The position numbers and the translations under genes are program-made. A stretch of DNA of 44,565 nt, from NCBI GenBank assembly GCA_964589835.1, contig CAZPUU010000001.1:1-44565 (forward strand), read 5' to 3'. The notes beneath the pieces were generated by a model. It was not told the DNA's origin. It ran no database searches and saw only the letters and a program-made list of their open reading frames with translations. Source of the stretch: an uncultured Gammaproteobacteria bacterium. GTDB lineage: Bacteria; Patescibacteriota; Microgenomatia; Levybacterales; GWA1-39-11. Shown in pieces: positions 13,071-43,760 of this stretch; position 1 is the stretch's first letter, and each line of letters begins with the position of its first letter.

Positions 13071-13798
13071 GATGAAAATCTATATTTAACCAGAGTTGAT
13101 ACTGCCTTAAATCCGTCACGGAATGTATTCAATTTTTTCCCCTCATTATATCCACGGGGTGTAGTCGTAATCGGAATTTCTATCAAATTAAGCTTTCTTT
13201 TCAAAAGTTTCGCTGTCAATTCGGGCTCCAACTCAAATCCACGGGCATTGAGCTTTAATTCTAGCGCAGCTTTCCTGGGAAACAACTTGTAGCAAGTCTC
13301 CATATCCGTTACCCATTTTCCATACAAAACGCTCGTTAACAAACTTAAGAATTTATTCCCCAAATAGTGAAGGATGAATCGGAACGTCTTTTCCTCGCGC
13401 CCAAAATGAGGCAATCTCCGAAGCCTTGAACCATATATCACATCTTTGTTGAAATCCTTGATACCCGCAACTAACCTTATGATATCTTGAGGATTATACT
13501 CAAGGTCGGCATCCTGTATAACAATGTAGTCCCCTTTTGCTTCTGAAATTCCCGTGATGACAGCAGCTCCTTTTCCTTTATTTCTCTCGTGAATGATAAA
13601 TTTTATCTTACCCTCTTTTGAGATAAATTCTTTTATCATTTTTTGAGTTTTGTCGGTAGAACCATCGTCAACCACAAGAATTTCCTTTTCAAATTTGGGA
13701 ATTGTCACTTTTGAAACTGCACCCAAAACATCTTTAATGGTTTTCTCTTCATTGTATACGGGAATCACAATCGAAAGAAGGGGTTTTGAGGCTGTCAT
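13067..13798 (-). CDS. GT2, DPM1/GtrB-type polyprenyl-phosphate-sugar synthase-like (no TM segment)
   Basis: 243 aa. Motifs: LSIVIPVYNEE, VVDDGSTDKT, NKGKGAAV, IQDADLEYNP, YGSR. Confidence 0.7.
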   Translation of the reverse strand: MTASKPLLSIVIPVYNEEKTIKDVLGAVSKVTIPKFEKEILVVDDGSTDKTQKMIKEFISKEGKIKFIIHERNKGKGAAVITGISEAKGDYIVIQDADLEYNPQDIIRLVAGIKDFNKDVIYGSRLRRLPHFGREEKTFRFILHYLGNKFLSLLTSVLYGKWVTDMETCYKLFPRKAALELKLNARGFELEPELTAKLLKRKLNLIEIPITTTPRGYNEGKKLNTFRDGFKAVSTLVKYRFSS

Positions 13799-18151: not shown

Positions 18152-18406
18152 ATGCAATCAGGCACACAACCCGCACCATATATCATCGCACTCATCATTG
18201 CTGTTTCGGTCCTTCAGCTTGCAATAAAAGCTGTCGCGCTGTGGCGTTCTTCGCAATTCAAGCAGAGGAATTGGTTCATCACTCTTTTTATACTGATACC
18301 TTTTAATGATTTAGGTGTAGCCGAACTTATATACCTATTCTGGTTTGCGAAAAAAAGGCTTACGATTCAGGAAGTTAAATCATGGTTCGTCAGAAAGAAG
18401 ACTTAA
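18152..18406 (+). CDS. Small 2-TM membrane protein, DUF5652-like
   Basis: 84 aa with two hydrophobic helices (IIALIIAVSVLQLAIKAVALW and WFITLFILIPFNDLGVAELIYLFWF). The pattern A.W+.....+NWF....I....G..E.IYL matches my recollection of the CPR-typical DUF5652 family. It is the only gene on this strand between two long minus operons. Confidence 0.55.
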   Translation: MQSGTQPAPYIIALIIAVSVLQLAIKAVALWRSSQFKQRNWFITLFILIPFNDLGVAELIYLFWFAKKRLTIQEVKSWFVRKKT

Positions 18407-19158: not shown

Positions 19159-21464
19159 TTTTTCCCTCCCATATATCCTAGCACCCAATATACAACCATA
19201 CTCATCAAACCTACCAGTGCCATATAGATTCCTATCATAAAACTCATAGGCTGATAATAAAACTCTATCTTACTTTCTCCTTTTGGTACTACAACTCCGC
19301 GGAAAGAATAGTTAGTTTTGTACAATTTTTCAACTTCCCCATTTACTTTTACTTTCCATCCCGGATAGAAATTATCGGTCAGAATGAGGAATAATTTTCC
19401 TGTTGTATTTGCTTTTATCATGATATTCGTCGGTAAATAGCGCTCGATCTCCGCACTTCCGCTTGCCTTCCTATCAAGACTAGGCACGGATTCTTCAATG
19501 AATGCTTTTGTTTTCAAATCTGCATCAAACATCGCTTCAGGAATTTGCTGATGAGCAAGTTTTTCAATATCGGAAACAACAAATGCCCGTTCAAAAGCGT
19601 TGTTATTTCTAAAAACGAGATAATGGGAATCGTCGTAAATTTTTGTGAATTGAGGGAGCGGATAATCAGCAAAAGGAAATGCCCACGGGAAATTACCGTC
19701 GGAAAATTTATGTACGACATAATGTACACCCAAAAAATCTAATGCTTGGTGGGTATATTTACCCTTCAAGGGAATATTTACAACCGATCTTTCAGGCTGG
19801 AGTATTTTTCCTGCTCCAACATATTGCATAAATTCTCCATATTCAGCTTTGTAAAGAGGGTCGTACCCGCTGAGTATCGGCATTTGGTAGTACACGGCGT
19901 CCTCTCCACCCGACATTCCAATTGCCCTATCATAATGATTTTGAGCATTATAAAAATTAGCAACAGGAACGTCTATATAAGCCAACTTCTTGGGATCAAA
20001 ATTTTGCCACTTCGATGCAAATCGGTGCATTTCAAAAAAACAAACAAAAACTAGAACCAAAACGATTAGTGATGAAGCCTTTTTATTTTTCAAAAAAAGT
20101 CGCGATACAACCGAACCTATTAGAATCAATAGCGTTAACAAGGGCAAAATACTATTCTTTCTGGCTATTAAGGTTTTGTCTGCTTCATGGATCGTAAGAA
20201 ACCCTGCAAGAAAAAGACTAATAAAAAGGGCGAGTATTGTAAAACTCCAAGTCACTATCTGCTTTTTCTTACTGCCGGATTTTATGACAGCGTCCAGTCC
20301 AAACCCTGAGAGAACCGCTATCGAAAAGCTGAAAAGCACAATTATTCTGCTTGCTGCGCTGGTTGAAATAACCGGCAATTTGAGTGCAACAAGTAAATTT
20401 AAGATTGGAGTGTCAAAAGCAAAAAGTAAAGAAAGTATTGCCAGCAAAATAAAATACATCGTCTTTCTATTTCTATAAAAAAGAACGGTAAAAACGGCAA
20501 AAGACAAGGCAGTTACCCCCGCAAATCCATTCCACTCGGCATAGTGTCCAAACCAATCGTTCCTCGTTACCGGGTTGCCAAAAAAATCGGGCGAGAAAAG
20601 AGTAGTCAGGTATTGAAGGGGTATCGCCTCAAATTTTTGAAACAATCCACTTCTATATGAAAGTGAATACAATTCCAAGGACGGAAGAATTTGGGGCATT
20701 GCGACAAATAATCCGATGATAGAAAAAAATCCTGCCGCAATGTATCTTTTCTTTTCTTTTGAGATAAATGCTTGATAGCAAATGAACGACGCGATGCCAA
20801 AAGTGAAATAAAGACTTGTTTGAAAATGTCCTGCAAAATAAGACAATGGAAATGTTAGTGATAATAGAATGATCCATCTCAGTTTTTGCCCCTCGACATA
20901 CCTTAAAACGGAATACATAGCAAGGGGTAACGGGAGAATTGCATAACCCAATGTTGCGTACCCGAGCCAACACACTAAAAAACCGCAAAACATAAATGAA
21001 GCGGCTGACATAAGACTGCCCCAAGGACTTATTTTTAATTTCCGCGTCAACAAATAGGTGAATAATCCCGCCATCAATGGCTGTAAAAGAACCAGAGCAC
21101 TCCAAGCATCTATGAATTTTATTGGGAGAAAAAATAATATATTAAGCGGGAAAAAAGCAGCAGACTGGTAATTTGCGACATGTGGAGTTCCCGCAAAACT
21201 GTATGGATTCCACAGAGGCAATCTCCCCTGCTTTAATTCCTGGATCGAAAAATAACGCCAAGGATATATTTGACCGATTATATCCGGCTGTGCATTGTTC
21301 TTGACCGGGCTTCCCATTCCGGGATATGAACTCCATGGAGAAAAGAAATTAACCTGATAAGTCGAGGGGAAAGGGGTTTTACCTAAAAAAACAGGGAAGA
21401 TAAACAGCAACCATAGCAAAATTAATAAAATGGGATGGATATGGTTCTTAATTTGCTTTATCAT
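19155..21464 (-). CDS. YfhO-family GT-C membrane glycosyltransferase (family E)
   Basis: 769 aa. Contains LPLWNPYSFAGTPHVANYQSAAFFPLNILFF, the C-terminal module NFYPGWKVKVNGEVEKLYKTNYSFRGVVVPKGESKIEFYYQP, and then a terminal TM plus basic tail. Confidence 0.8.
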   Translation of the reverse strand: MIKQIKNHIHPILLILLWLLFIFPVFLGKTPFPSTYQVNFFSPWSSYPGMGSPVKNNAQPDIIGQIYPWRYFSIQELKQGRLPLWNPYSFAGTPHVANYQSAAFFPLNILFFLPIKFIDAWSALVLLQPLMAGLFTYLLTRKLKISPWGSLMSAASFMFCGFLVCWLGYATLGYAILPLPLAMYSVLRYVEGQKLRWIILLSLTFPLSYFAGHFQTSLYFTFGIASFICYQAFISKEKKRYIAAGFFSIIGLFVAMPQILPSLELYSLSYRSGLFQKFEAIPLQYLTTLFSPDFFGNPVTRNDWFGHYAEWNGFAGVTALSFAVFTVLFYRNRKTMYFILLAILSLLFAFDTPILNLLVALKLPVISTSAASRIIVLFSFSIAVLSGFGLDAVIKSGSKKKQIVTWSFTILALFISLFLAGFLTIHEADKTLIARKNSILPLLTLLILIGSVVSRLFLKNKKASSLIVLVLVFVCFFEMHRFASKWQNFDPKKLAYIDVPVANFYNAQNHYDRAIGMSGGEDAVYYQMPILSGYDPLYKAEYGEFMQYVGAGKILQPERSVVNIPLKGKYTHQALDFLGVHYVVHKFSDGNFPWAFPFADYPLPQFTKIYDDSHYLVFRNNNAFERAFVVSDIEKLAHQQIPEAMFDADLKTKAFIEESVPSLDRKASGSAEIERYLPTNIMIKANTTGKLFLILTDNFYPGWKVKVNGEVEKLYKTNYSFRGVVVPKGESKIEFYYQPMSFMIGIYMALVGLMSMVVYWVLGYMGGKK

Positions 21465-22623
21465 GACGGATTAATTTTACTATTCTTACAAAACCTGTTA
21501 CTAACAGTATATATATAAATGGAAGAAGTGGGAGAAAGTACCTTGTCGAGGTGTAGCCTGTCGAAAGCATTAGAGAATATCCAACAACCCAAAGGATTAA
21601 GATAATCTCGTATTGTGTAATTTGAATTTTTTTAACAAGAGCAAGAATTGCAGTTGCGCTACTGATAACAACCGCAATTGGCCAGTATATCCTCCATTGC
21701 GGATCAGATAGTATTTCGTACTCACCCCACCATGTATGCCATCTGTTGAATAAAATTAAATCCCAAAAGGAGAAAGCGTTGGTAAATGCCGATTTATGAT
21801 ACGCAAGTATATACTTTTGCACACCAAAAATTTGAATTATAGAATATCCGTCCTGGATAGTCTTCGTATAGGAAAGGAGCAAAACGATGAGCGAGAGTGG
21901 CAGTGTAAGTCCGAAAATCAAGAGCTCCTTCATGCTCTTTTTGAAAAAAAGCAAATAACTACCCATCACAACCACCATTAAAGCACCGGTAACAAAGAAA
22001 CGGATACTTATAACAAATCCCAAAAGTATAGAGGTGACAATGAATGGAAGGATTTTTTTCTGATTCTTTATTCCCAGAAAGAAAAAATAAAACGCAAAAA
22101 TAATAAACGGCAGCTGCACCGGCTCCGGGAGAGGAGCATACAGTAATTTATTCAGAGTCAGTGGTTCATTGGCAAAAATTGCAACCGGAATTAGACTGAG
22201 AAAAATATTTTTTGTTATAAAATATGAAATTAGAAATATTCCCAAAAAAGACAATGACAAGAAAAATAGAATTAAGGTACTAGCGTTATCAAAAAAAACA
22301 ATCGAAAGAGAAAGCAAATATCTTCCCAGCGGTGGATGATCATGAACTATTAAAATTGGGTTCATTCCTTTTAGAAATGCCCCCGCAGCGAAGGATTCAA
22401 ATGTTTCATCCGGTATTATACCCGCACCATCTTTTTTAGCATATTGAGAAGAATAGTAGGCATTCTTGAGATTTTTATACTCATTTGCGTATCCTCCTCC
22501 AAAAAATTTACCCTGATTTTGTACTATCAAATAGAAAAATTGGGCAAATATAAAAGCCAAGGCAATGACAAAAAAAATCCATTTTTCAAATTTGTTGATT
22601 CTTTGATTTTTATTTTTTTTCAT
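21448..22623 (-). CDS. Minimal PMT (GT39)-like membrane glycosyltransferase
   Basis: The first-loop block IIPDETFESFAAGAFLKGMNPILIVHDHPPLGRYLL matches the DE...HPPLGK signature of protein O-mannosyltransferase-type GT-C enzymes. Preferred start is the ATG at 22623 (GGAGG at 22633..22629, 5-nt spacer), giving 391 aa. The track start at 22662 adds 13 aa with no RBS. Confidence 0.65.
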   Translation of the reverse strand: MKKNKNQRINKFEKWIFFVIALAFIFAQFFYLIVQNQGKFFGGGYANEYKNLKNAYYSSQYAKKDGAGIIPDETFESFAAGAFLKGMNPILIVHDHPPLGRYLLSLSIVFFDNASTLILFFLSLSFLGIFLISYFITKNIFLSLIPVAIFANEPLTLNKLLYAPLPEPVQLPFIIFAFYFFFLGIKNQKKILPFIVTSILLGFVISIRFFVTGALMVVVMGSYLLFFKKSMKELLIFGLTLPLSLIVLLLSYTKTIQDGYSIIQIFGVQKYILAYHKSAFTNAFSFWDLILFNRWHTWWGEYEILSDPQWRIYWPIAVVISSATAILALVKKIQITQYEIILILWVVGYSLMLSTGYTSTRYFLPLLPFIYILLVTGFVRIVKLIRHDKAN

Positions 22624-24247
22624 TTTTCCTCCATACAACAACACCAAATACAAAAAGAGCAAGTGCCGTCAAAATGGTAAGAACATTTGAAAGAAGCCGT
22701 AATTTTGTATCTTCAAAAACTACCGCCACATCATACGTTCCTTTTGGTAATTCAAAGGTTATTAAACCCCGTTCGGAAGGATCTTGGAATTGTATCGGAA
22801 GATCTTTCCCTTTTACTCTCGCGTGCCACCCGGGAAAGTAAAGTGTATTTTCCCGCAACCGCGCATTTTCTGTATCAACAATAATTGTATATATGTGACT
22901 TGTTGATGTCCGACTGACTTGTTGGATTAAGGCCTTTCCAGAAATTGTTTCAATCGGCGCTTGCGGTTTTTTCTCCATAAATCGTACCGACCAAATCGGA
23001 GCGCTTTCTCCTGTGTCAGTGGTTCCGTTATATATTTGTTCGTAAAATGAGTCGGAACTTTGCGTATACGCCTTGGCCTTCCAGTAAGGTAGGGTTGTAA
23101 CAAAAAGAACCGTTGCAATCATAACGACACCCCATACTCTTTTTTTCTTCTCCAATAACAATAAGGGGCACGCAGCAAGAACAGCGGAGGCAAAAGCAGT
23201 AAGACTTAAAAATCGCCAAGGGAATTGGAATTTCTTAAATATTGTAACTATTTCGTACACGAAATTTGAAACTGAAAGTTGAATAAATAGAGAAAATAGT
23301 AATACAAGCAACAAAATGAAAAGTAATATCTTTTGAGACTTCTTAATACTTTTCCTGAAAAATAGAAATGGCAAAAGCAATAACCCTGCAATCTGAGCAA
23401 TACCGATCTGAACAGTGAACTGTCCGGTTATTCCGTAATTCCACTCACCATATAAAAATTTCAGCGGATTATCTATGAAACGCGATCTGTATTCATTTCC
23501 TGTCACAATATCACGAAGCGTAAATTTCCCTTCCAAAAAAGCAGGAATTGTAAAAAATCCTGATAGTAAAAATCCGGCAATAAAAAATATCCCGACCATC
23601 AATAGGTGATTATATTTTTTTGAAATGATTGAAAGATATACACCATAAATTATAAAAATTGGAATAAACATAAGGCTGATCGCATTGTGGGAAAGCAGCA
23701 ATAATGCAAAACTCACACTTACTCCTATCAAATCTATTGAGGATTTTTTATTGTATTCATTTCTAAAATAACGAATCATAAAATACAGAACAAGAGGTGG
23801 AAATATAAATGCCATATGTTCTCCGATTGCTCCCCTGACATACAGATCAACAAATCTATAGGGGGCAAAAAGATAAAGAAGAGCTGCTGCAAACCCGACA
23901 TTCTGATCAAACTGCTCCTTTGCCCATAGATACATTGCAATTCCGCTCGCAACATATCCCAATCCAAATATCATCTTCAATGAATCAACATACGAAAAAC
24001 CAATAAAGTGAAAAAATGAAGCTGTATATGAAGAAAAGGGATACAAAAACATCAATATTGGATGACCATATCCCCAGTTGAGAAGCTCTGCCCAGCGAGG
24101 TACAACAACACCTTCAGACAACGCGCGATAAAAGTTTGCAATCCTTGCAACGTGATCTACTCCATCATGAGTTACAGGAAGCCCACCCGGCAAAAGCCCT
24201 GCAAGAGGCAGCAGAGCAATAATAATTAACAATAAATACTTTTTCAT
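22610..24247 (-). CDS. COG5617/'PTPS-related'-like polytopic membrane protein (family F), putative GT-C
   Basis: 545 aa. N-terminal block LPVTHDGVDHVARIANFYRALSEGVVVPRWAELLNWGYGHPILMFLYPFSSY. C-terminal module LYFPGWHARVKGKDLPIQFQDPSERGLITFELPKGTYDVAVVFEDTKLR, then a terminal TM. Confidence 0.5.
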   Translation of the reverse strand: MKKYLLLIIIALLPLAGLLPGGLPVTHDGVDHVARIANFYRALSEGVVVPRWAELLNWGYGHPILMFLYPFSSYTASFFHFIGFSYVDSLKMIFGLGYVASGIAMYLWAKEQFDQNVGFAAALLYLFAPYRFVDLYVRGAIGEHMAFIFPPLVLYFMIRYFRNEYNKKSSIDLIGVSVSFALLLLSHNAISLMFIPIFIIYGVYLSIISKKYNHLLMVGIFFIAGFLLSGFFTIPAFLEGKFTLRDIVTGNEYRSRFIDNPLKFLYGEWNYGITGQFTVQIGIAQIAGLLLLPFLFFRKSIKKSQKILLFILLLVLLFSLFIQLSVSNFVYEIVTIFKKFQFPWRFLSLTAFASAVLAACPLLLLEKKKRVWGVVMIATVLFVTTLPYWKAKAYTQSSDSFYEQIYNGTTDTGESAPIWSVRFMEKKPQAPIETISGKALIQQVSRTSTSHIYTIIVDTENARLRENTLYFPGWHARVKGKDLPIQFQDPSERGLITFELPKGTYDVAVVFEDTKLRLLSNVLTILTALALFVFGVVVWRKNEKK

Positions 24248-26214
24248 ATCCCCACTTTGTATATGTCTATTGTACCGTTACTAAAAACTTTTTTCGCGTC
24301 TATTTTCTCCGCCGGCACGCTTAAACCATATCTACCATAAAAGTATAGGTAGGAAATCCTGTTTTCTGTAAGCATTGTTTTAACAAGGACTGCATTGTTA
24401 CTTTTTTCAATGCTCTCAACGATTTTCGAACGCACTGAAAGATCGACTCCGTGCCTACTCATGATAACCTGACCTGACAAAAAAGTGTTATTTCTGGCAA
24501 GAATACTTACATAGGAAAAATGGCTATCCCACTGGCCATGATTAAATACCAGGATAGTGCCTGGTTCATGCTCCAAGTATTTACCGGCTTCCAATTCGTA
24601 AGAGTGAATAATAGGCAAGGTTTTTTTAAAATATAAATTGCCAATTGATGTCTTGTAGATCCACCTGGGAATCGTAACGGAAATAAGGAGGATAAAAAAA
24701 GCTATTTTTATAAAAGCAGCCTTATCCGAAATCCAATTATTGAGGGTGACTGCAGCAATAATTGAGAGGAAAAAACTTCCTGCAAGGAAAGAATTAAATA
24801 TATCGGCAGGTGCTACCGGCTGTATAAATAAAACTCCAAAGGCAAATGCAAAAATGATACCCCCATACAACATCGTCCAGAAAGGAAGAGTAAGCACGTG
24901 AATAGTTTTCTTGAAAATCAAAAAACCTACTGTTCTTATTCCGAATTGTGAGACGATATAAATTGCAAGCATTGTTAAATCCATTCTCCATACTTGTAAA
25001 TAATTTGAGTATTGTAAATAGACCCTCCTTGCCAGTTCCATCCACGACAGGCCGAGCCCATTCTGAACTACAAAATTTCGCGAAGTCATTTCAAAAGGAA
25101 CGAAAATGGCTCCTCCTGCGCCTGCATTTACAGGAAAATAAATCGCCAAAGAAATAAAAAAGCTTGCCAACAAGTAAAGATCTTTATACCGTCTGATAGC
25201 TAAAAGGTACAACAGGATGACTCCTATCCCGAATAGAGCCATCGCTCCTGTATGAACCTTGAATCCAATAAGAGAACCGAATGTCAGAACAATAAATAGA
25301 CCGATCTTTCTGTCGAAATTCTCCAACCATTTTTTGATCAGGATAATACCAAAAAACAAAACTACAAAGGAAAAAGCCCGTGGAGTGTTCTCAAGAAACA
25401 TCGTTCCATCCTCAAGCGGATGGATTGTAAAAATAAAGACATGACGGACAATAAATGTTAAAAGATATATAACATCCGAGGAAAAATATTGAAGATAAAT
25501 GATAACTATCAAACCAAACTTCCCGAACTTGACAAATTTTCCAAAAATGTATGCCAGACTCCCAATCAAAAAAGAAATCAAAATTCCCATAAAAAGGTAC
25601 TGCGTTGCAAAAAGTGGCAATTTAAAAACCCTCACAAGCTCCGCAATTACCATATTTGACCAATAGTGGTAATTATGAACCACTACTCCGCTCATACCGG
25701 GCTCTATCGGTGGAAATGTTCTCGTTAAAGACTCGATAAGTCCCGTATGCCAAAACGTGTCATCAGCAGAACCTGAAAAAAGCCTTATTCCATCAGAAAA
25801 ATTAAATGCTCCAACAACAAAAGGTAGATTCTGACCGAAAATACCAAGTAAAAAAATTACAACAATAAAGAAATCAATTTTTATATGCCTAAAAAGATTT
25901 TCTTTTTTAAGAAATGCCACTCTATGCTTTTTTACCCAGAGGATTATGAAAATCAAAAGATAGATGTAAGTCAAAAATCGTAAATGTAAATATCCCAATA
26001 CAACACCTTGATATGCCCAAATAACCATTCCAAGCGTGAGTGAAAGGATAAAAATCGCAAATGGACTATTCGTCAAACGCAAAAGTGATTTCCCAAAAAG
26101 TACCCTGCCGGGCATGTAGAAAGCGCAATAAATACTTGCAAGAAAATATGGGGTTAGCAGAATGTTTATTGCCAATGATTTCAGAAAAACAATATCGGTG
26201 AAATGATCAATCAT
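24244..26214 (-). CDS. Uncharacterised large polytopic membrane protein (family C); paralog of 9858..11828
   Basis: 656 aa. See the shared motif blocks listed for 9858..11828. ATGA overlaps with both neighbours. Confidence 0.45.
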   Translation of the reverse strand: MIDHFTDIVFLKSLAINILLTPYFLASIYCAFYMPGRVLFGKSLLRLTNSPFAIFILSLTLGMVIWAYQGVVLGYLHLRFLTYIYLLIFIILWVKKHRVAFLKKENLFRHIKIDFFIVVIFLLGIFGQNLPFVVGAFNFSDGIRLFSGSADDTFWHTGLIESLTRTFPPIEPGMSGVVVHNYHYWSNMVIAELVRVFKLPLFATQYLFMGILISFLIGSLAYIFGKFVKFGKFGLIVIIYLQYFSSDVIYLLTFIVRHVFIFTIHPLEDGTMFLENTPRAFSFVVLFFGIILIKKWLENFDRKIGLFIVLTFGSLIGFKVHTGAMALFGIGVILLYLLAIRRYKDLYLLASFFISLAIYFPVNAGAGGAIFVPFEMTSRNFVVQNGLGLSWMELARRVYLQYSNYLQVWRMDLTMLAIYIVSQFGIRTVGFLIFKKTIHVLTLPFWTMLYGGIIFAFAFGVLFIQPVAPADIFNSFLAGSFFLSIIAAVTLNNWISDKAAFIKIAFFILLISVTIPRWIYKTSIGNLYFKKTLPIIHSYELEAGKYLEHEPGTILVFNHGQWDSHFSYVSILARNNTFLSGQVIMSRHGVDLSVRSKIVESIEKSNNAVLVKTMLTENRISYLYFYGRYGLSVPAEKIDAKKVFSNGTIDIYKVGI

Positions 26215-27125
26215 TTGGGGAAACTTCCTTTACCAAATCTCTTTAAGTAATAATCTTTGACTCCTATTTTTTGCCATTTACGTCCATTGAGTAACAATCG
26301 GAAACTCTCTCGTATAAGCGCGCTCTTTGTTTTGAGTGGAGCGTATTTAACACCGAAAATCAATCTATTGCGAGTTAAATAATAATCATGAAGTTCAGAA
26401 CCCGAGCCGGATGACCCTGCGTTATTGTGCCAAACGATGGCGCGGGGAGCATACATAATTTTGTATTTATTATGTATGATTTTTGCGCTTAATTCAGCGT
26501 CCTCATAATATAGAAAGTATCTCCTGTCAAAAAGCCCGATTTTATCAATCATTTGCTTGCGAAGAAGCAAACAAGCTCCGGTCGCAAACTCTATCTCATC
26601 CGATTCATCATACTGACCCCGGTCTACCTCATCCACACCTTTATGGATGCTCATAACATTATCCCAATCCATATAACCACCCGCATACCAGATCACTTTC
26701 CCTTTTTCCTTTTCATTATATCTATGACCATGGAATTCCCTCCCTTTTGTAAAATATATTTTAGGAACGACAGCACCAACTTTTTTGTCATCCATTGCTG
26801 ACGTCATCTGACGCAGGAATTCCCTCTCTCCCAAAGAATCGTTGTTAAGAAGAAGAAAATAGTCAAATACTTCGTTCCTAACATTTTCGAATACAAAATT
26901 GTGCCCTCCGGTAAAACCGAGATTATCAGCACTTTTCAACAAAGATAAATGTATTTTTTTATAGTTATCTGTATTTAGGTCCAATGTCTCTCTTGACGCG
27001 TTGTCGAGAACATATGTGAGAATTTCAAGACCTGTCAGATCAGAAGACATCAAAGAATCCAGGCAGGCAAGAGTATCCTTATTGCTATTGTAGTGGAGAA
27101 TAGAAATTATGATTTTTTGCATCAA
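26211..27125 (-). CDS. GT2 glycosyltransferase, WbbL/RfbF (rhamnosyltransferase)-like subgroup
   Basis: 304 aa. Motifs: ISILHYNSNKDTLACLDSL, LDNAS, NLGFTGGHN, LLLNNDS, ATGACLLLR, YYEDAELSAK. Confidence 0.75.
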   Translation of the reverse strand: MMQKIIISILHYNSNKDTLACLDSLMSSDLTGLEILTYVLDNASRETLDLNTDNYKKIHLSLLKSADNLGFTGGHNFVFENVRNEVFDYFLLLNNDSLGEREFLRQMTSAMDDKKVGAVVPKIYFTKGREFHGHRYNEKEKGKVIWYAGGYMDWDNVMSIHKGVDEVDRGQYDESDEIEFATGACLLLRKQMIDKIGLFDRRYFLYYEDAELSAKIIHNKYKIMYAPRAIVWHNNAGSSGSGSELHDYYLTRNRLIFGVKYAPLKTKSALIRESFRLLLNGRKWQKIGVKDYYLKRFGKGSFPK

Positions 27126-28018
27126 GAATGTATTCTTCTTTTTACCTTTAACAATTGCTTTTTTATGACATTCTTTTCGCTTGTTATCTTGACGTATGAT
27201 GTCCAGTAGAATAACTCCTTCTTTGCCATTTTCTCTCCATCTTGAAATAGCCTTGAAATTTCCTTCTCTTCCGGATAATTATTTGCCTCCCAAAGCCTTA
27301 GAAAAACTACCAAATGATAGAACCCCTGAAGCAGAGACAGAACCAATCCATGCATTCCGTCTTTATATCCGCTTTCTGCAAAATACCTTTTCACAAATTC
27401 CGAAAGCGGCATCCTGACAATGTCAAAAGAATTATAGACATAACCGTTTTTTTGAAGATTTTCGGCCTCATTCACCGTGTAAGTTTTTATCATTTTATTT
27501 AAAAATTGAGAAATATTTTCATAATTGAGATGTAAGAGCGGACTTTGAAGATTTTCGGTAGGTCCTTCTACCTTCAAATGTTCGTGTACGTGTAGCTCCT
27601 CAAATCTTCCTTTGTTTTTCTTAAATAACCTTAACTGAGGATCAGGATACCAACCGGTATGCCTAATCCATTTACCGAAAATAATATTCTTTCGGGGCAT
27701 ATAGTAACCGTCTACATTTGATGGTTCCAATTCGAGAATTTCTTTAGACAATTCCTCGGTTATTCTTTCATCTGAATCGAGACTTAATATCCAGTCCGCA
27801 TTTGCCTTTGAAAACCCAAAATTCTTATTGATATTCAACATTGCATTATTCTCTCTCATAAAAATTTTGTCTGTGTATTTTTTTGCAATTTGAACCGTTT
27901 TATCAGTTGAGTTGTTATCGACAAAAATTATTTCTTCAGCAATTTTACTCACCGAGGCAAGGCATTCCTCGATTTTTGCTTCTTCATTAAAGGCTGAGAT
28001 GACAACACTTACTTTCAT
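27122..28018 (-). CDS. GT2 glycosyltransferase, WaaE/KdtX-like subgroup (paralog of 18403..19158)
   Basis: 298 aa. Motifs: VSVVISAFNEE, FVDNNSTDKT, LDSDERITEEL, and tail GYKDGMHGLVLSLLQGFYHLVVFLRLWE. Confidence 0.8.
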   Translation of the reverse strand: MKVSVVISAFNEEAKIEECLASVSKIAEEIIFVDNNSTDKTVQIAKKYTDKIFMRENNAMLNINKNFGFSKANADWILSLDSDERITEELSKEILELEPSNVDGYYMPRKNIIFGKWIRHTGWYPDPQLRLFKKNKGRFEELHVHEHLKVEGPTENLQSPLLHLNYENISQFLNKMIKTYTVNEAENLQKNGYVYNSFDIVRMPLSEFVKRYFAESGYKDGMHGLVLSLLQGFYHLVVFLRLWEANNYPEEKEISRLFQDGEKMAKKELFYWTSYVKITSEKNVIKKQLLKVKRRIHS

Positions 28019-28036: not shown

Positions 28037-29494
28037 TTAGGGTTTTGAGCGCACAGATGAAATAACAAATCTTCCTATTTTTAAGCATTCACGACGCGCA
28101 ATGATGAATAGAAATCCGGAGTAGATAAGCATAGAAAGACAACCAAAAAACACCATATGGATCAGTGAATCGACGAATTGGGCGGTTATAACTGTAAAAA
28201 TAAACATTACAATCGCTGCTATAAATTGCTTATATATAGGCGCTATAACCGAAAATTCCACATACCGCTTTGATACAATAAATACTCCGACAGAACTTAA
28301 AGAAACAAGAAAAGTTGAGAAAGCTACGCCATTATAACCCATTACTGATAGCAGGATAAGTGTAGAAACCCATATCGCAACGGTCCAAAATATCATGAAG
28401 TAAAATGTAATTTTTACCTTACCAATCGCATTTAAAAAGTTAGTTAAAGGCGTTGATATCGATGAGAGAACCGTCCCCAAAGAAAAAAATGTTATAGAAA
28501 GAATTGCTGGCTCCCATTTCTGATACCTGGGGAAGTATGAAATAAGAAAAGGAGAGTATGCTATGATTGCAACCGCAATCGGAAAGATCGCAAGGCATAT
28601 CAGAAAAAGCGATTTTTCTATCGCCAACCGTAATGCCTTTTTGTCATCCTGAAGCCTGCTGAAAGATGGGAATGTTACTTTTATAACGTTATCCATGACA
28701 AGCCGTAGGGGCAGATATGCTACCTTTTCTGCAAATCCGATGTATCCAAGTTGCGAGATAGGAAGCACCTTACCCAAATATATAGTCCTAAAGTCATCTT
28801 TAAAAAGAGCAAGTACGCTGTTTGCCTGAAATGGTATACCGAATGACATGAGTTTTTTCAAAGATCGTCTGTCAAACGCTATGCCGATCGGCCAAGGTTG
28901 AATTATGTATATTGCAATCAGTCCAACTACGCTTCTCAAAAGAATTGCTATTGTAAAACTTGCAACCTTCATACCCAAAATTGCACATGCTATAAGAGCC
29001 AGATTGTAAACCAAATTTTCCAATATTTGAGGGATGACGAGTTTTCCATAATCAAGTTTTCGCTCCAAGAGGATAGTCGGGATGGTTCTTAACGAAGTAA
29101 GGACAAAAGAAACTAGCAGGGCTATCAAGAGAATGTATCCCGCCTCATCCAGATGATAGAAATGTGCAATATTTGAAGAAAAAAGTAGTGCCGGAATAAC
29201 CATTACCAAAACCAACAACTGCTGAGTGACAAAAACGGTTCTCAATTGTTCTTTAGTCGGCTCCTCTTTCGCCTGTATTAAAGATGCAGCAAGCCCAATA
29301 TCCTGAAAATAATTAAAAAAAACAATGATCGACGAGACCACAAAAAATATTCCAAAACTGGCGGGATCTAAAAAGACTGTCAGGATAAAACTAGTAATAA
29401 GTCCAATGAGCTGGAGAATAAAAGAACGCGACACAAGTGCAAAAGCGCCTCTTACAGATTTTGTCGCAATTGCATGTAGTTCAAAATCATCCAT
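28037..29494 (-). CDS. Wzx-like polysaccharide/oligosaccharide flippase (MOP superfamily)
   Basis: 485 aa with roughly 12-14 hydrophobic segments. The N-terminus KSVRGAFALVSRSFILQLIGLITSFILTVFLDPASFGIFFVV is typical of Polysacc_synt-type flippases. Confidence 0.7.
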   Translation of the reverse strand: MDDFELHAIATKSVRGAFALVSRSFILQLIGLITSFILTVFLDPASFGIFFVVSSIIVFFNYFQDIGLAASLIQAKEEPTKEQLRTVFVTQQLLVLVMVIPALLFSSNIAHFYHLDEAGYILLIALLVSFVLTSLRTIPTILLERKLDYGKLVIPQILENLVYNLALIACAILGMKVASFTIAILLRSVVGLIAIYIIQPWPIGIAFDRRSLKKLMSFGIPFQANSVLALFKDDFRTIYLGKVLPISQLGYIGFAEKVAYLPLRLVMDNVIKVTFPSFSRLQDDKKALRLAIEKSLFLICLAIFPIAVAIIAYSPFLISYFPRYQKWEPAILSITFFSLGTVLSSISTPLTNFLNAIGKVKITFYFMIFWTVAIWVSTLILLSVMGYNGVAFSTFLVSLSSVGVFIVSKRYVEFSVIAPIYKQFIAAIVMFIFTVITAQFVDSLIHMVFFGCLSMLIYSGFLFIIARRECLKIGRFVISSVRSKP

Positions 29495-29520: not shown

Positions 29521-30234
29521 TTATATTCTTTTATTATGTATATCAAACCAAAGAATAAAACTCTCCAATACTGCCCTCACAACAACTGCTATATTAGCTC
29601 CACTTTGGTCTCCGAATTCTCGAGGATAATGGTTTACTTCAACTTCTTTTATTTTAAGTTTTTTTCTGGTTGCCTTGGCAAGAATTTCCGTTGTAATCAT
29701 CGCGCCCTCCGAGCGAAGCGGCATGATTTCATTGAATACGGACTTTCGGAACATCTTGAAACCGCAATCGATATCCTTGAAATAAAACCGAAAGAATACA
29801 AAATCCCATATTTTAAGCAAATACATAAGAACGTGACGTACAAATTTATCTCGTCGTTTTTTACGGAAACCAATTACTATGTCGGAACCATTTATGGCAT
29901 CAACAAATTTATCGACTTCGGAAAAATCAAATTGCCGATCCCCATCGGTGAAAACAACGTATTTATATCGTGCATTTTCAAATCCTTCCCTAAGCGCTGC
30001 CCCATAACCCCTGTTCGGAGAGTGAGTAATAGCTCTCACATTCTTGTATTTTTGGGCCAACTCACGGCCTATTTCGTACGTCTTGTCAGACGATCCATCG
30101 TCGATGATCAATATCTCCCATTGCTCTGCTATTGATTTTGCAACAGGTATTGCGCTTTCGACGACATGCTTTACGTTCTTTTCCTCATTCCAAAAAGGAA
30201 AAAATATGGAAAGTTCAGGTAACTTCTTTTGCAT
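29521..30234 (-). CDS. GT2, DPM1/Ppm1-type polyprenyl-phosphate-sugar synthase-like
   Basis: 237 aa. Motifs: LSIFFPFWNEEKN, IIDDGSSDKT, NRGYGAALREG, FTDGDRQFD, GFRKKR, DCGFKMF. Confidence 0.7.
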   Translation of the reverse strand: MQKKLPELSIFFPFWNEEKNVKHVVESAIPVAKSIAEQWEILIIDDGSSDKTYEIGRELAQKYKNVRAITHSPNRGYGAALREGFENARYKYVVFTDGDRQFDFSEVDKFVDAINGSDIVIGFRKKRRDKFVRHVLMYLLKIWDFVFFRFYFKDIDCGFKMFRKSVFNEIMPLRSEGAMITTEILAKATRKKLKIKEVEVNHYPREFGDQSGANIAVVVRAVLESFILWFDIHNKRI

Positions 30235-30235: not shown

Positions 30236-31918
30236 TTATTTCTTGCGTCTTGAAAGTATTATTATAGCAGTTGGCAATGATAAAAATACAATAAGCGAGA
30301 TCATATTTGCAACAGATTGGAGAGGAGTATTTTTCAACTCTATCTCCAAAACTCCCTTCCCTTTTGGAATTTCCATATTCACACCTTTTTTGTCGTCAAC
30401 TATGGGAATCTGTTTACCATTTATCTTTGCTTCCCATGACGGATAATATGCACGGTTGAGATGAACAATCCCATTCTCGGCAAGATCGTAATCAACAATG
30501 TAATACTGAAACTTTTTCATTTCAAAACGAAGACTCCCCATACCTTGATACAGCTCTATGTCACGCTCAAATAAATCAGATGGACCCATTGGCTTAATGA
30601 ATCCGGACGGTAAATATTCGTCAGATATTTTTGACACTGTAAAATTAATATATTTTTGACTCGTATAGTAACTTGACGAATTTGAATTGAAATATTGAGG
30701 TGTAAAAAGTTTTATTCCAAGAATTATAGATCCGACAATAATACATATTGATATATACAATGCGACCGCATTATTTTGTTTCTTCGCAACAAAGTAAGGG
30801 ATATAACCGATAACAAACGCAGTAAAAAGTGCAGTAAAATTGATAAATCTCCAAGGGTATTGAATGTATTCCATAAATGGGACAGCACCCCAAATCATAG
30901 CGGTAATTGATAAAGTTAAAACTGTACTTATAACAACTAGCACAATACTTATAACAACCACCTTTTCCTGCAAATCAATTTTTTTCTTTCCAAAACTATA
31001 TACAAGAAAAAGCATCGAGACAATCAAAAGCAGTATATTCAATTTACCTGCTTTAAAACTTAATCCATCGATACACCCCTTAACCGACCCCCCAAACCCC
31101 CACAAGGAATCCCAGTATTGGCCGAGACAGACAAAGTGATCCCGAAAGTTGGCGCCTCCGCCTATTTGGGAAGCAACATTTGTGTATTTCATCTCAAGAA
31201 AAGCCGGCACGATGTAAAAAGCAGAAAGTGCTACCCCGACAAGAAGTGCCCCGACAACTGCTATAGCGAAATATTTCCTGTACTTGGCAAAAAAGTAAGC
31301 TAAAAGAGTTGTCGGAACCATAATTATTAAAAGCATAAAAAACGTCAAATTATGAGAGGTTGCTACCAACAGTACCCCGTAAGACATAATAAGAAATTCT
31401 TTCATGGCAAATTTTTTCCTGTCTTCAATAAACGAATAGATTCCGTAAAAAATAAGCGGCAAAAAAGCATATGCAAAAAGTTCTCCCACTGCTCCTCTAA
31501 CATAGATATTTACCGCGTGGTATGGAAAGTATGAATAAACAATAGCACTGACAACTCCACCGACATCACCAAAGAATTTCCTTGAAAAGATGAACATCGT
31601 CACTGCAGAAAGCAAAATCCCAACACCAAGCATTATCTTTGTTGAAATGAGGGCATTTATTCCAAGAAGGGTGACTACCCCTCCGATGTAGTAAGGCAAA
31701 GGACCGTAAAAATTAAAAATCGGGTACCCATAACCGTATCCAAGATCCGGCACCCATCTTACGGGAAATGTTTTTTGCGCAAGCATTTTCCCCATTTCAT
31801 ATACTCTTACTACTTGTGTGTTGTCATGAACATCAAAAAACCCACTATGCAAAAGAGGCAATACTGTTCCAATGCAAAGAAGAAGAACAAGTATCAATAA
31901 AGCAATATTTCTATTCAT
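30236..31918 (-). CDS. COG5617/'PTPS-related'-like polytopic membrane protein (family F)
   Basis: 560 aa. Contains FFDVHDNTQVVRVYEMGKMLAQKTFPVRWVPDLGYGYGYPIFNFYGPLPYY, the C-terminal AYYPSWEAKINGKQIPIVDDKKGVNMEIPKGKGVLEIELKNTPLQ, and then a terminal TM. Confidence 0.5.
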   Translation of the reverse strand: MNRNIALLILVLLLCIGTVLPLLHSGFFDVHDNTQVVRVYEMGKMLAQKTFPVRWVPDLGYGYGYPIFNFYGPLPYYIGGVVTLLGINALISTKIMLGVGILLSAVTMFIFSRKFFGDVGGVVSAIVYSYFPYHAVNIYVRGAVGELFAYAFLPLIFYGIYSFIEDRKKFAMKEFLIMSYGVLLVATSHNLTFFMLLIIMVPTTLLAYFFAKYRKYFAIAVVGALLVGVALSAFYIVPAFLEMKYTNVASQIGGGANFRDHFVCLGQYWDSLWGFGGSVKGCIDGLSFKAGKLNILLLIVSMLFLVYSFGKKKIDLQEKVVVISIVLVVISTVLTLSITAMIWGAVPFMEYIQYPWRFINFTALFTAFVIGYIPYFVAKKQNNAVALYISICIIVGSIILGIKLFTPQYFNSNSSSYYTSQKYINFTVSKISDEYLPSGFIKPMGPSDLFERDIELYQGMGSLRFEMKKFQYYIVDYDLAENGIVHLNRAYYPSWEAKINGKQIPIVDDKKGVNMEIPKGKGVLEIELKNTPLQSVANMISLIVFLSLPTAIIILSRRKK

Positions 31919-33573
31919 GATTTAAATTGCAAAATTGGTCGCATGAGTATAAAGAAAATAACTAATAAAGTGGCTAGGCTTAAGATGTCTAGTGACAAGC
32001 GCAATGGTGTTTCCTCAAATACCAAAGTGACTCTGCTCCTAAACTGACTTCCCTGAATTTCCATAACCCCTTGCGCATTATCATAATTTATCCCTACCTT
32101 TTCATTATCAAGATATGCTTTCCATCCGGGATAGTAAATTGTATTTATTCGAAAGACAGGATCAGTAACCGCATCATATTTAAATGATATTTTTTTTGAA
32201 CTGTATTCTAAATTACTTATTGAAGCATTTCCACTGACGACAATAACTTTTTCACCGTATCGACTTTTAGGATGCTCTTTTACCCAAAGGGGCATAAGTT
32301 CAGACGAACTTGTTGTTGTTGCTTCGTTTGTCAGGTATTGCTGATCGGGAGTATTATTGAAGCTTTTTGGTTTTGCATACGGCAAGGTTAGAAATACTGC
32401 AACTATGCAAAGAGCTATTACGGCATATTTAAAGTATCTCCCTTGACCGATCAAAAATCCGGCCGAGAGCGCTGTTATAAATCCTAATTGAGATAATAAT
32501 ATCCACGGATAATTAATTTCGGAAAGAAGAGGGAGAGTTTTCCATACAACGCCGGTTATGGAGAAAAGCATTACCAAACAAACCAAGTAAATGGCGAGCA
32601 AAGTCGTTGAATAAAACTTATGCGGTGTCAGCATGAATTTTGTTTTGACGAATGAGAACCCAAGAACAAGAATTATCAAAGCAATAATTGCGATATGCGC
32701 AGGACCGAGTTGATAGGAAAATCCGTCACTTCCCGTAGGTGAACCATAACCCCACGATGGAAATATAAGTTGCTTAAAATCGACAAAATACAGATTTCTG
32801 TCAGCAATTGGAATCTTCGACAATAAAATATTACCCTTCTCCAATAACGCCGGTACCCAGAAAAAAACTGACAATCCGGCCCCAAGAACGATGCAAAGAA
32901 AAAATGATTGCACAACATCAAATCTTTTTTCTCTCAGTATTCGTGCGATCATAAACGCAAGCAAAACAGGCAAAAAAAGTATCGTCATGATGTTGTGGGT
33001 CATAACCAAAATTCCCAAAAGAATTGAGAGCGTAACAACCGAGAACCGTGAGAAGGCAGTATCAAAAAGTTTTGTTGAAAAATAGAAAATAAAAGGAAAA
33101 AGAGCAAATGCAACGCTCTCTCCTATCGAGCCCCTAACATAAAGATCAACCATTCTATACGGAAGGTAAACGTAAAGAACCGATGAAACGACTGCAGCCA
33201 TTCTATTTCTCCAAAGGAGGTTTGAGGCAAGGTACATACCTATTCCCGATAAGAAAACACTTGCAACAAAAATGGTCTTAATAGACAGAACAAAATTATG
33301 AAAACCTACATAAAAGAGCAGACCTAAATAATATGGAAAAGGGTATGCAAAATTAAAAAGAGGATAACCGTATCCAAAATTCAGTGCTCCGCTAAATCGA
33401 GGTGGTATTTGAAAATCGCGAAGAGTCCTGAACATATCGGCCAACCTTACAACTGCCCATTCACCGTCATGTGTCGGAAAATACCCTTCTTTGAAAAACG
33501 GAGCAACAACAGGAATACAAATAATTAATACAATTATTAGCAAGACTAAATTGTTGTCCAATATTTTTTTCAT
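31915..33573 (-). CDS. COG5617/'PTPS-related'-like polytopic membrane protein (family F)
   Basis: 552 aa. Contains YFPTHDGEWAVVRLADMFRTLRDFQIPPRFSGALNFGYGYPLFNFAYPFPYY, the C-terminal IYYPGWKAYLDNEKVGINYDNAQGVMEIQGSQFRSRVTLVFEETPLR, and then a terminal TM. Confidence 0.5.
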   Translation of the reverse strand: MKKILDNNLVLLIIVLIICIPVVAPFFKEGYFPTHDGEWAVVRLADMFRTLRDFQIPPRFSGALNFGYGYPLFNFAYPFPYYLGLLFYVGFHNFVLSIKTIFVASVFLSGIGMYLASNLLWRNRMAAVVSSVLYVYLPYRMVDLYVRGSIGESVAFALFPFIFYFSTKLFDTAFSRFSVVTLSILLGILVMTHNIMTILFLPVLLAFMIARILREKRFDVVQSFFLCIVLGAGLSVFFWVPALLEKGNILLSKIPIADRNLYFVDFKQLIFPSWGYGSPTGSDGFSYQLGPAHIAIIALIILVLGFSFVKTKFMLTPHKFYSTTLLAIYLVCLVMLFSITGVVWKTLPLLSEINYPWILLSQLGFITALSAGFLIGQGRYFKYAVIALCIVAVFLTLPYAKPKSFNNTPDQQYLTNEATTTSSSELMPLWVKEHPKSRYGEKVIVVSGNASISNLEYSSKKISFKYDAVTDPVFRINTIYYPGWKAYLDNEKVGINYDNAQGVMEIQGSQFRSRVTLVFEETPLRLSLDILSLATLLVIFFILMRPILQFKS

Positions 33574-35339: not shown

Positions 35340-36989
35340 TTGAATAAATCTATGAAATTATACGCTTTGGTTCTTGCTATATCGGTTCTTCCCCTGATAC
35401 ACATCTTTACCAACCCCGGCCTGCCTCATACAAGCGACGGATTGATGCACGTAGCAAGATCTGCAGCTTATCTCAATGAGCTTTCCGCAGGACAGTTACC
35501 GGTCAGGTGGGCAAGCCAGTTCAATTATGGCTATGGAACGCCTATATTTAATTTCTTCAACCCCATTCCGTATGCTTTTGGGGCTCTTCTTCTTTCTCTT
35601 GGATTTAACCTAGCAACAATTCTAAAAATTGGATTCGCGATTACCTATCTGTTGGGAGGAATATTTACCCTGCTTTTTGCAAAAACACTCTTTAAGAATA
35701 CTAAAATCGCCTTTCTAGTAACCATGCTCTACCAATTCGCCCCATTCAGGCTGGTTGAAATGCATACAAGAGGTGACATTGGATGTCTTTATTCTTATAT
35801 GCTTTTACCGCTCGTTTTTTACTCAATCATCAAACTTCTCGAGAAATACACCTATCCACGTGTAGCACTCGTCGCAATTTCCATCGCCCTACTTCCTTTA
35901 ACACATAACATCAATGGATTTGTCTATTTTTGCCTGAGTGGTTTATTTGTTCTCTTTATGACACGGGATCTTAAGAAAATAGTTACTGTATATTTTGCAA
36001 TGGGTTTTGGAATATTGCTCACCAGCTCGTTTATATTTCCTGCACTTTTTGAATTGAAATACCTCAATGGCTATATTTTCAGCAAGCATCTTTTCTACAT
36101 GCATTTCCCTCAGCTCTATAAATTATTTTTGCCAAATATCACAAATCTTCCTTCGTTACGAGTAGAAGAAGTTTCTGTTCAAATTGGTCTTTTTCATCTC
36201 ATATCATTTTTTGGGATGGCATATTTTTTGTGGAAAAAGAAAATAATGGGCAAGCATGCAAATTTTTCACTGTTCTTGATTATTGTGTCATTCCTTACCT
36301 TTCTTATCATGACCCCCATCACAAAACCTCTGTGGGAGAATATAGAGCACCTTCGGCAGTTTCAATTCCCTTGGCGGTTCTTGTCTATCTTGATCTTTAC
36401 AACCTCTGTTGCGGGAGGGTTTTTCGTGCAAAATGTACCGGTTGTTCTTAAAAGAAATACCTACATTACAATCGTTATCCTTATTATATTCAGCACGTTT
36501 TTTTACTGGTGGCCATATCAAGGATATCTAAAAATCAATGAGAACTATTACAGAAATTACCCAGGTTCTACCAACTATTTTGCGGAGGTAAATACCATAT
36601 GGATGGAAAAAGAACCACAGAATTACCCAAAGAAAAGAATTGAAGTAATCGGCGGGAAGGCAACACTATCCAATATTTCAATAAAACCGGAAAACCAGTC
36701 TTTTACGGTAACGGCCATCAATGATGTGCAGATTTTGAGTAACACCTACTTTTATCCCGGCTGGAAAGTAACTGCCAATAATCAAAAAGTACCTATTGAA
36801 TTCCAGGACTCCAATCATCGGGGTCTGATAACTTTTCATCTTCCTCAAGGAACCCACAATGTAACCGTTACATATTCTGAAAATAAAATTTCGAAGGTCA
36901 GTAACGTTCTTTCAGTCGTTGCAATTGGAATACTACTTTTTGGTTTTATACCAACTCTCTTAAGAAAAAATGCTAAAAAGAAAAAGTAA
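35340..36989 (+). CDS. COG5617/'PTPS-related'-like polytopic membrane protein (family F)
   Basis: 549 aa from the TTG at 35340. The ATG at 35352 (MKLYALV..., 545 aa) is at least as likely, because the TATAAT at 35332..35337 would place the transcript start downstream of the TTG. Contains LPHTSDGLMHVARSAAYLNELSAGQLPVRWASQFNYGYGTPIFNFFNPIPY, the C-terminal TYFYPGWKVTANNQKVPIEFQDSNHRGLITFHLPQGTHNVTVTYSENKIS, and then a terminal TM. Confidence 0.5.
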   Translation: MNKSMKLYALVLAISVLPLIHIFTNPGLPHTSDGLMHVARSAAYLNELSAGQLPVRWASQFNYGYGTPIFNFFNPIPYAFGALLLSLGFNLATILKIGFAITYLLGGIFTLLFAKTLFKNTKIAFLVTMLYQFAPFRLVEMHTRGDIGCLYSYMLLPLVFYSIIKLLEKYTYPRVALVAISIALLPLTHNINGFVYFCLSGLFVLFMTRDLKKIVTVYFAMGFGILLTSSFIFPALFELKYLNGYIFSKHLFYMHFPQLYKLFLPNITNLPSLRVEEVSVQIGLFHLISFFGMAYFLWKKKIMGKHANFSLFLIIVSFLTFLIMTPITKPLWENIEHLRQFQFPWRFLSILIFTTSVAGGFFVQNVPVVLKRNTYITIVILIIFSTFFYWWPYQGYLKINENYYRNYPGSTNYFAEVNTIWMEKEPQNYPKKRIEVIGGKATLSNISIKPENQSFTVTAINDVQILSNTYFYPGWKVTANNQKVPIEFQDSNHRGLITFHLPQGTHNVTVTYSENKISKVSNVLSVVAIGILLFGFIPTLLRKNAKKKK

Positions 36990-43759: not shown

Positions 43760-43760
43760 A

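Follow-up and report, generated by a model that had tools for sequence, protein, structure and literature searches.

Four paralogous PF10131 membrane proteins in a glycosyltransferase-rich contig as candidate GT-C class A glycosyltransferases related to YfhO

Four paralogous membrane proteins, here called F1 to F4, are encoded on contig CAZPUU010000001.1 of assembly GCA_964589835.1, of which a stretch of 44,565 nucleotides (nt) was analysed as a whole and is referred to as the window. An earlier note on this DNA had described them as an uncharacterised family resembling proteins annotated as '6-pyruvoyl-tetrahydropterin synthase-related', and had proposed that they are glycosyltransferases dependent on polyprenyl-phosphate sugars. 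In the present analysis, F1 to F4 are read, with a probability of about 0.62, as glycosyltransferases with the class A fold of glycosyltransferase type C (GT-C), which belong to Pfam family PF10131, are compact relatives of YfhO and would pass sugar from a lipid-linked donor to an acceptor at the cell surface. This reading starts from what was observed, namely the paralogy, the family, the fold, the conservation and placement of an early aspartate (Asp), the homology to YfhO and the gene order, and extends from there to the type of donor, its flipping, the roles of single residues and the acceptor, which we infer.

The four genes are:

22610..24247, minus strand: F1, 545 amino acids (aa), predicted compact YfhO-like membrane glycosyltransferase of GT-C fold; PF10131 E 2.4e-13, PMT_2 E 3e-5 (sub-threshold)
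30236..31918, minus strand: F2, 560 aa, predicted GT-C paralog directly upstream of a glycosyltransferase family 2 (GT2) gene of ArnC/DPM1-like type; PF10131 E 6.7e-15
31915..33573, minus strand: F3, 552 aa, predicted GT-C paralog in tandem with F2 (4-nt ATGA overlap); PF10131 E 1e-12
35340..36989, plus strand: F4, 549 aa, predicted GT-C paralog and first gene of a divergent plus-strand block; PF10131 E 3.5e-12

The products of these open reading frames (ORFs) are all polytopic membrane proteins, 545-560 aa long. When the membrane proteins of the window were compared all against all by BLASTP, the four matched each other along almost the entire sequence, with 25-30% identity and E-values of 1.7e-77 to 1.5e-38, which is far beyond chance; hence they are true paralogs, as had been claimed. 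Most of the motifs quoted for them were recovered in their alignment, i.e., (H/S)D(G/N), an invariant R35, an invariant R51 followed by W or F, and GYG.P...F..P, whereas 'P.R' is present in only three of the four, F1 showing V-P-R. The ATGA overlap between F3 and F2 was found as described (tcATGAat), and F4 indeed heads a plus-strand block after a divergent gap of 133 bp, in which the next gene is a YfhO gene at 36970-39324. F4 itself may start at either of two codons (TTG at 35340 or ATG at 35352). Upstream of it, at 35309-35354 on the plus strand, a promoter-like ATTACA-17-TATAAT was noticed with its -10 hexamer at 35332-35337, which would set the transcript start between the TTG and the ATG and so give a near-leaderless ATG start; as one such site was found against 1.2 expected in the AT-rich gap, i.e., at chance level, this candidate was rejected.

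The suspected resemblance to PTPS_related proteins proved correct. F1 to F4 match PF10131 at 46.0-55.0 bits against a cut-off of 26.4 (E 3.5e-12 to 6.7e-15), and close homologs of the F proteins carry NCBI names of PTPS_related type (COG5617). The match spans profile positions 1-324 of 621 only (protein residues about 70-405) and thus not the full model; moreover, the model begins downstream of the first transmembrane helix (TM1) and of the early Asp, so that the candidate catalytic residue lies outside it. Since PF10131 has been listed in the Pfam GT-C clan CL0111, with function unknown, in an HHpred survey (PMC7801869), the GT-C identity of the F proteins is not new, but already implicit in the clan assignment. 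The earlier proposal of a 'further class' of glycosyltransferase consequently held in one part only: that the proteins are glycosyltransferases is favoured by all computational checks that were run, whereas a further class they are not, because PF10131 already stands in clan CL0111 and the family is a truncated YfhO relative.

Apart from PF10131, Pfam returned no family for F1 to F4 at E <=0.01 except the sub-threshold PMT_2 match of F1; a true link to 6-pyruvoyl-tetrahydropterin synthase was rejected on this ground. NCBIfam holds no model for the F proteins, and in Pfam, NCBIfam and PDB sequence searches none of the four matched a characterised family other than glycosyltransferases. A tblastn search of F3 against plasmids gave no match. 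In a profile search of the whole library 18,978 cluster representatives were retrieved at E <=0.001 and 6,227 at E <=1e-30, and for a family of the former size the present analysis offers a concrete, testable assignment.

Structure models were calculated with AlphaFold2 for F1 (144-sequence alignment; predicted local distance difference test, pLDDT, 96.4; predicted template modelling score, pTM, 0.94) and F2 (45-sequence alignment; pLDDT 90.9, pTM 0.91). Both display an N-terminal helix, a loop of about 50 residues containing a juxtamembrane helix, about a dozen more membrane helices, a beta-sandwich and a final helix; in F1 the strands of the sandwich lie at residues 432-511 and the last helix at 515-544. 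That the core is of GT-C type, a point at which the glycosyltransferase proposal could have failed, is predicted by Foldseek, in which all leading PDB matches (top 24 for F2, top 30 for F1) were GT-C proteins, among them AglB, STT3, AftA, AftD, ArnT, PglB, DPY19, EmbA/B/C, AftB, Pmt1/2/4 and ALG12/9/3, with probabilities of 0.98-1.00 except for one (0.75, the lowest-ranked F1 match). The models thus support the GT-C class A fold for F1 to F4. The predicted topology is N-in, C-in. With loops taken from the model helices, lysine and arginine amount to 18 in 39 inside residues versus 26 in 290 outside residues, and by the positive-inside rule the outer face would carry the beta-sandwich and the loop with the Asp, along with the remaining conserved polar residues.

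The early Asp is encoded at:

24164..24166, minus strand: Asp28 (D28) of F1, candidate catalytic residue
31823-31825, minus strand: D32 of F2, equivalent of F1 Asp28
33466-33468, minus strand: D36 of F3, equivalent of F1 Asp28
35436-35438, plus strand: D33 of F4, equivalent of F1 Asp28

Its conservation was followed in an alignment of F1 to F4 with 140 of the best 150 representatives, chosen for their ordinary length, representatives being less than 50% identical to each other. The scope is that of relatives within the Patescibacteria, as every informatively named representative or locus belongs to Levybacteria, Gottesmanbacteria or Microgenomates. The Asp is retained in 143 of the 144 aligned sequences, the lone exception being a gap, at a mean column identity of 27%. 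In the same alignment R51 is invariant, and more than 90% of the sequences keep R35, K91, R138, E143, H187, E239, P343-W344-R345 and E414. In the F1 model, D28 stands immediately before helix 29-44, the first juxtamembrane helix. According to a structural study, the tip of juxtamembrane helix 1 is where every GT-C class A enzyme carries an Asp essential for catalysis (PMC12041299). The suggestion that this residue is the catalytic candidate therefore gains support from its conservation and from its modelled position. Defining it, although it is omitted by the PF10131 model, is an addition of this analysis.

Conservation of this kind also bears on the question whether the F proteins are enzymes at all. 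They might be scaffolds, transporters or factors of lipid-carrier recycling that share a GT-C-like fold, and activity has indeed been shown for no PF10131 protein in the literature found. However, the Asp and about ten outward-facing charged residues are near-invariant at such a low mean identity, four paralogs are kept at fixed positions in small genomes, and the linkage to GT2 genes resembling donor synthases is tight, as set out below. Because of the conservation pattern, a non-enzymatic role is regarded as highly improbable.

With regard to its nearest relatives, the F family is best described, from profile comparisons, as a compact (truncated) relative of YfhO in both the core and the C-terminal module. 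Aligned by hhalign to the three YfhO paralogs of the window, the F-family profile reached a probability of 99.1% in the core (E 4.8e-19, 344 columns), and its C-terminal slice, which takes in the sandwich, a Y(F/Y)PGW motif and the final helix, 98.3% (E 1.6e-14, 109 columns). Against the PMT_2 paralogs of the window the probability was 94.9% (E 4e-8) over the first 236 residues, and D28 came to lie within three residues of the W-D-E motif of PMT_2. Read by eye, F1 and all three YfhO paralogs agree in the spacing D-(22)-P-x-W, which is one residue shorter in F2; in the comparison of F1 and YfhO the Asp heads a D-x3-Q-x-Y-x-W helix.

The C-terminal modules are located as follows:

22613..22975, minus strand: F1, residues about 425-545, predicted extracytoplasmic beta-sandwich with YFPGW and final transmembrane helix
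30239-30583, minus strand: F2, equivalent of the F1 module
31918-32268, minus strand: F3, equivalent of the F1 module
36618-36986, plus strand: F4, equivalent of the F1 module

A YfhO-type C-terminal module common to all four had been postulated and is real, though it stays below the Pfam threshold. In addition to the hhalign result, all four F proteins match residues 685-780 of the YfhO encoded at 36970-39324 in BLASTP (E 1e-7 to 7e-4). The cut-off of PF09586 (YfhO), 28.5 bits, was not reached by any of F1 to F4, the full proteins giving no match at E <=0.01 and the C-terminal fragments of three of them giving 13.3-19.2 bits (E 4e-4 in F4 to 0.03), while that of F2 remained without a match. 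YfhO of Bacillus subtilis was reported to have 13 helices with a loop of 389 aa between the last two (PMC5836110). In F1, about 125 residues separate helix 367-388 from helix 515-544, and the large extracellular region of the YfhO type is absent. The firm link of PF10131 to YfhO across core and C-terminal module is likewise contributed by this analysis.

The genomic surroundings correspond to what had been described, the F genes being embedded among genes of GT-C proteins (PMT_2, YfhO, GT87) and of GT2. On the minus strand the order is PMT_2, F3, F2, small GT2, Wzx, GT2, GT2, a 656-aa protein and F1. The following genes complete the module that begins with F3 and F2:

29521..30234, minus strand: small GT2 of 237 aa, which would supply the donor as a candidate synthase of polyprenyl-phosphate sugar; PF00535 E 8e-28
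28037..29494, minus strand: Wzx/MOP-type flippase, 485 aa; Polysacc_synt_3 E 2e-48, Polysacc_synt E 3e-26, MatE E 1e-5
26211..28018, minus strand: two larger GT2 genes, 298 and 304 aa, with GT2 Pfam matches, completing a six-gene module

The best PDB sequence matches of the small GT2 are ArnC (8e-18), the dolichyl-phosphate mannose (Dol-P-Man) synthase of Pyrococcus furiosus (5e-14) and GtrB (5e-11), all of which are polyprenyl-phosphate glycosyltransferases, and its top NCBIfam matches are ArnC and AglJ, both below cut-off.

Related loci were collected as the best 80 of 547 relatives in species-representative genomes, and their ORFs were classified by phmmer with the window proteins as seeds. 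By record title they stem from Patescibacteria or from metagenome-assembled genomes (MAGs) named 'uncultured Gammaproteobacteria', plus one Lysobacterales and one 'bacterium'. Gene orders were conserved as follows:

F, small GT2: 78/80 loci
F, small GT2, Wzx: 77/80 loci
F, F, small GT2, Wzx: 68/80 loci
F, F, small GT2, Wzx, GT2, GT2: 62/80 loci

Several loci without the full six-gene order sit on short or truncated contigs (not tallied). The predicted association with DPM1-like GT2 genes was thus met with insofar as a small GT2 follows immediately downstream of F in the first of these counts, but all of them describe the synteny of one lineage and not independent co-occurrence. Many MAG records with the Levybacteria-type module (L001-L006 and others) bear the title 'uncultured Gammaproteobacteria bacterium'; because of their gene content and nearest relatives, this label looks like a placeholder or mislabel.

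In multi-component transmembrane glycosylation of Gram-positive bacteria, an enzyme of the GT-A type (CsbB, GtrB, GacI) synthesises a polyprenyl-phosphate sugar, which is flipped by a protein of the GtrA or Wzx type, and a GT-C protein (YfhO, GtlB, GacL) then transfers the sugar outside the cell (PMC8035078). The order F, GT2, Wzx, in the window as in the related loci, shows the corresponding co-encoding of GT-A enzyme, flippase and GT-C protein, and by analogy the layout matches a three-component system of extracytoplasmic glycosylation. Owing to this likeness, transfer of single sugars is proposed for the F enzymes. On the cytoplasmic side, the adjacent ArnC/DPM1-like GT2 would charge polyprenyl monophosphate with sugar taken from a nucleotide sugar, and the adjacent Wzx/MOP-type protein would flip the lipid-linked sugar to the outer face. 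There, each F enzyme would move a single sugar from the polyprenyl-phosphate donor to a surface acceptor, which could be a glycopolymer or a protein. The invariant Asp (D28 in F1), sitting where the first juxtamembrane helix begins, might act as catalytic base, while the conserved, outward-facing R35, R51, K91, R138, H187 and R345 might hold the phosphate of the donor. The beta-sandwich at the C-terminus, with the last helix as its tether, may aid in binding the acceptor, comparable to the carbohydrate-binding modules (CBMs) of GT136, Emb and AftD.

Several results weigh against this reading. The template modelling (TM) scores of the leading Foldseek matches to solved GT-C structures are modest, mostly 0.40-0.47, and the best of these matches are oligosaccharyltransferases, which use oligosaccharide rather than single-sugar donors. 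Neither the 4-sequence nor the 144-sequence F profile found a PDB sequence match even at E 10, so that the similarity of F and GT-C proteins exists at the level of the fold, and the Asp is not placeable on a solved structure via sequence; a PDB sequence search with a PMT_2 paralog likewise remained without a match. ArnC and GtrB have C-terminal membrane helices, which are missing from the small GT2 of the module. All 80 loci are orthologous and come from one lineage, so their counts amount to conserved synteny lacking a genome-wide background. Finally, a search of the literature in full text yielded no functional study and no biochemical or genetic data for PF10131, COG5617 or PTPS_related.

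From the oligosaccharyltransferase matches a different route can be derived, in which the F proteins would transfer or polymerise whole lipid-linked oligosaccharides, be it as oligosaccharyltransferase, ligase or polymerase. The small and the two larger GT2 would then build an oligosaccharide on polyprenyl phosphate, Wzx would flip it and F would transfer it, in a manner resembling the archaeal AglJ/AglG/AglB pathways with their dolichol monophosphate carriers. AglB of Archaeoglobus fulgidus and eukaryotic STT3 are the best Foldseek matches of both models, yet their E-values differ little from those of the single-sugar enzymes AftA, AftD and ArnT, and the marks of the oligosaccharyltransferases STT3, AglB and PglB were not found in F1 to F4, which have no PF02516 match, no WWD motif and, as stated, no match among PDB sequences. 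The module does hold a Wzx-type flippase together with two further cytoplasmic GT2 genes; however, Wzx- and MATE-type proteins have also been proposed as flippases of single-sugar lipid donors, and no initiating phosphoglycosyltransferase was seen in the window. The small GT2 genes of the window score best or near-best against AglJ in NCBIfam, though below cut-off. As the nearest relatives by sequence, YfhO and PMT_2, are single-sugar transferases, we consider en-bloc transfer unlikely and retain single-sugar transfer as the preferred reading.

The positions of the paralogs are as regular as the module itself. F2-type genes are found directly upstream of the small GT2 in 77/78 related loci, and the F3-type gene is the next upstream of F2 (position -3 from Wzx) in 66/66; F1-type genes come after the pair of larger GT2 genes in 12 related loci, and F4-type genes are situated divergently upstream in three. 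Judged by these sequence comparisons, the paralogs form position-specific orthogroups, from which it follows that the duplications should be old and every copy retained, and that the four probably differ in linkage or acceptor. The description of the conserved six-gene module and of the position-specific orthogroups in Microgenomatia is a further addition of this analysis.

Tandem F genes might also mean that F3 and F2 are active only as a heterodimer, like Pmt1-Pmt2 or EmbA-EmbB, in which case the paralogs would be subunits of a complex and still GT-C transferases. The tandem with its 4-nt overlap is kept in 66-68/80 loci, and the N-in, C-in topology would permit fusion. A natural F3-F2 fusion of the same order (P0121, 1116 aa) and an F2-F2 fusion (P0122, 1093 aa) exist, but they may represent read-through in gene calling caused by frameshift errors at the overlap. 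Furthermore, both F3 and F2 keep the Asp and all other conserved residues, neither of them looking like a dead subunit, and in some loci (L034, L037, L048, L052) a single F gene precedes the GT2. Obligate heterodimers are hence judged improbable, and F1 to F4 continue to be treated as transferases in their own right. In public data, giant proteins were also encountered (P0123, P0125), one of 3329 aa with two F1-type units and two YfhO-type C-terminal modules and one of 1670 aa containing several F pieces; these are either real fusions or read-through gene calls.

The window as a whole has a GC content of about 37%, is AT-rich and almost wholly coding, mainly on the minus strand. Its gene content was classified as:

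PMT_2-like: 10, including those of 404 aa (21448-22662) and 577 aa (39305-41038), both by profile comparison or BLASTP only, and the ORF at 3-1082 (minus strand), cut by the left end
YfhO: 3
F (PF10131): 4
GT87: 2
GT2: 7, including four small ones of 237-261 aa
GT4: 1
Wzx-type flippase: 1
Epimerase: 1

The genes of GT-C proteins thus number at least 19 in 44.5 kb (window 3-44516). Two polytopic membrane proteins of 656 aa, encoded at 9858-11828 and 24244-26214 (both minus strand), are paralogs of each other (31% identity, E 9e-85) and gave no Pfam or NCBIfam match; the latter gene lies directly upstream of F1 with a 4-nt overlap. That these proteins (U1, U2) are further F relatives was rejected, given hhalign probabilities of <=1.4% against every GT-C group of the window. 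On the other side of F1, the ORF at 21448-22662 (minus strand) encodes 404 aa with about ten helices and no Pfam match, and is distantly PMT_2-like (hhalign probability 85.5%). As the ORF overlaps the end of F1 by 53 nt, translation probably begins further downstream than listed. In P0203 (944 aa), a relative of the 404-aa protein is naturally fused to an F-type protein.

A second unit, consisting of a small GT2 (about 250 aa) and a following GT87, occurs at 41031-44516 and 11832-13798 (both minus strand) and recurs in L007, L013 and many other loci. GT87 is followed in turn by a PMT_2-like gene in the right-hand copy as well as in many related loci, and in those loci this gene is directly upstream of F3-F2. 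The GT2-GT87 unit is regarded as another putative pairing of donor synthase and GT-C protein. The minus-strand block has a single sizeable gap, between GT4 and a GT2; an 84-aa ORF located there at 18152-18406 (plus strand) has the look of a two-helix membrane protein and is a doubtful gene.

Patescibacteria have been described, in the abstracts consulted, as having small, reduced genomes, and so dense a set of GT-C genes in such a lineage suggests that surface glycans are central to the biology of this bacterium and possibly to its episymbiotic lifestyle. This island is the most intriguing aspect of the window, whereas the conclusion at the level of the fold will hardly surprise a glycobiologist. 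In the literature on Patescibacteria that was searched for GT-C or YfhO, neither term was found. More speculatively, and with the odds well against it, the window might be part of an assembly line by which a bacterium of the candidate phyla radiation makes a large heteropolysaccharide wholly at the outer face of the membrane, in analogy to the synthesis of mycobacterial arabinogalactan and lipoarabinomannan. The roughly 19 GT-C proteins of the window would then use a few polyprenyl-phosphate sugars provided by the four small GT2, and F3-F2 would be the obligate heterodimeric core of the six-gene module. If true, it would suggest that Microgenomatia possess an envelope polymer not described so far.

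F1 to F4 were further compared with known systems. In GT136, represented by ORF12 of Citrobacter youngae, D31 has been proposed as the catalytic Asp and follows TM1; the protein ends in an immunoglobulin (Ig)-like CBM and works in a three-component system for pentofuranose with a lipid-sugar synthase and a MOP/MATE flippase (PMC11127046). The Asp after TM1, the C-terminal domain and the partnership with synthase and flippase recur in F, as compared by description only, whereas the donor synthase of GT136 is a phosphoribosyltransferase of the UbiA type and the one beside F is a GT2. With ArnT, PMT, PMT_2 and GacL, i.e., GT-C class A enzymes using single-sugar donors on polyprenyl phosphate, the F proteins share the fold class and an acidic residue just after TM1, but they exhibit a single HD motif instead of DE, and their C-terminal module is of another kind and ends in a membrane anchor. 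GacL of Streptococcus pyogenes was proposed to act together with the Wzx-type flippase GacK (PMC8035078). YfhO (PF09586), the partner of CsbB in the glycosylation of lipoteichoic or wall teichoic acid with N-acetylglucosamine in B. subtilis, Staphylococcus aureus and Listeria monocytogenes, differs from F in size (760-785 aa in the YfhO paralogs of the window versus about 550 aa), in its extracellular region (389 aa in B. subtilis YfhO versus about 125 aa, most of it being gone in F) and in its partner flippase, which is of the GtrA type and not of the Wzx type. Nevertheless, YfhO has a core and a C-terminal module homologous to those of F and, like F, is encoded beside a GT2 that resembles the synthases of polyprenyl-phosphate sugars.

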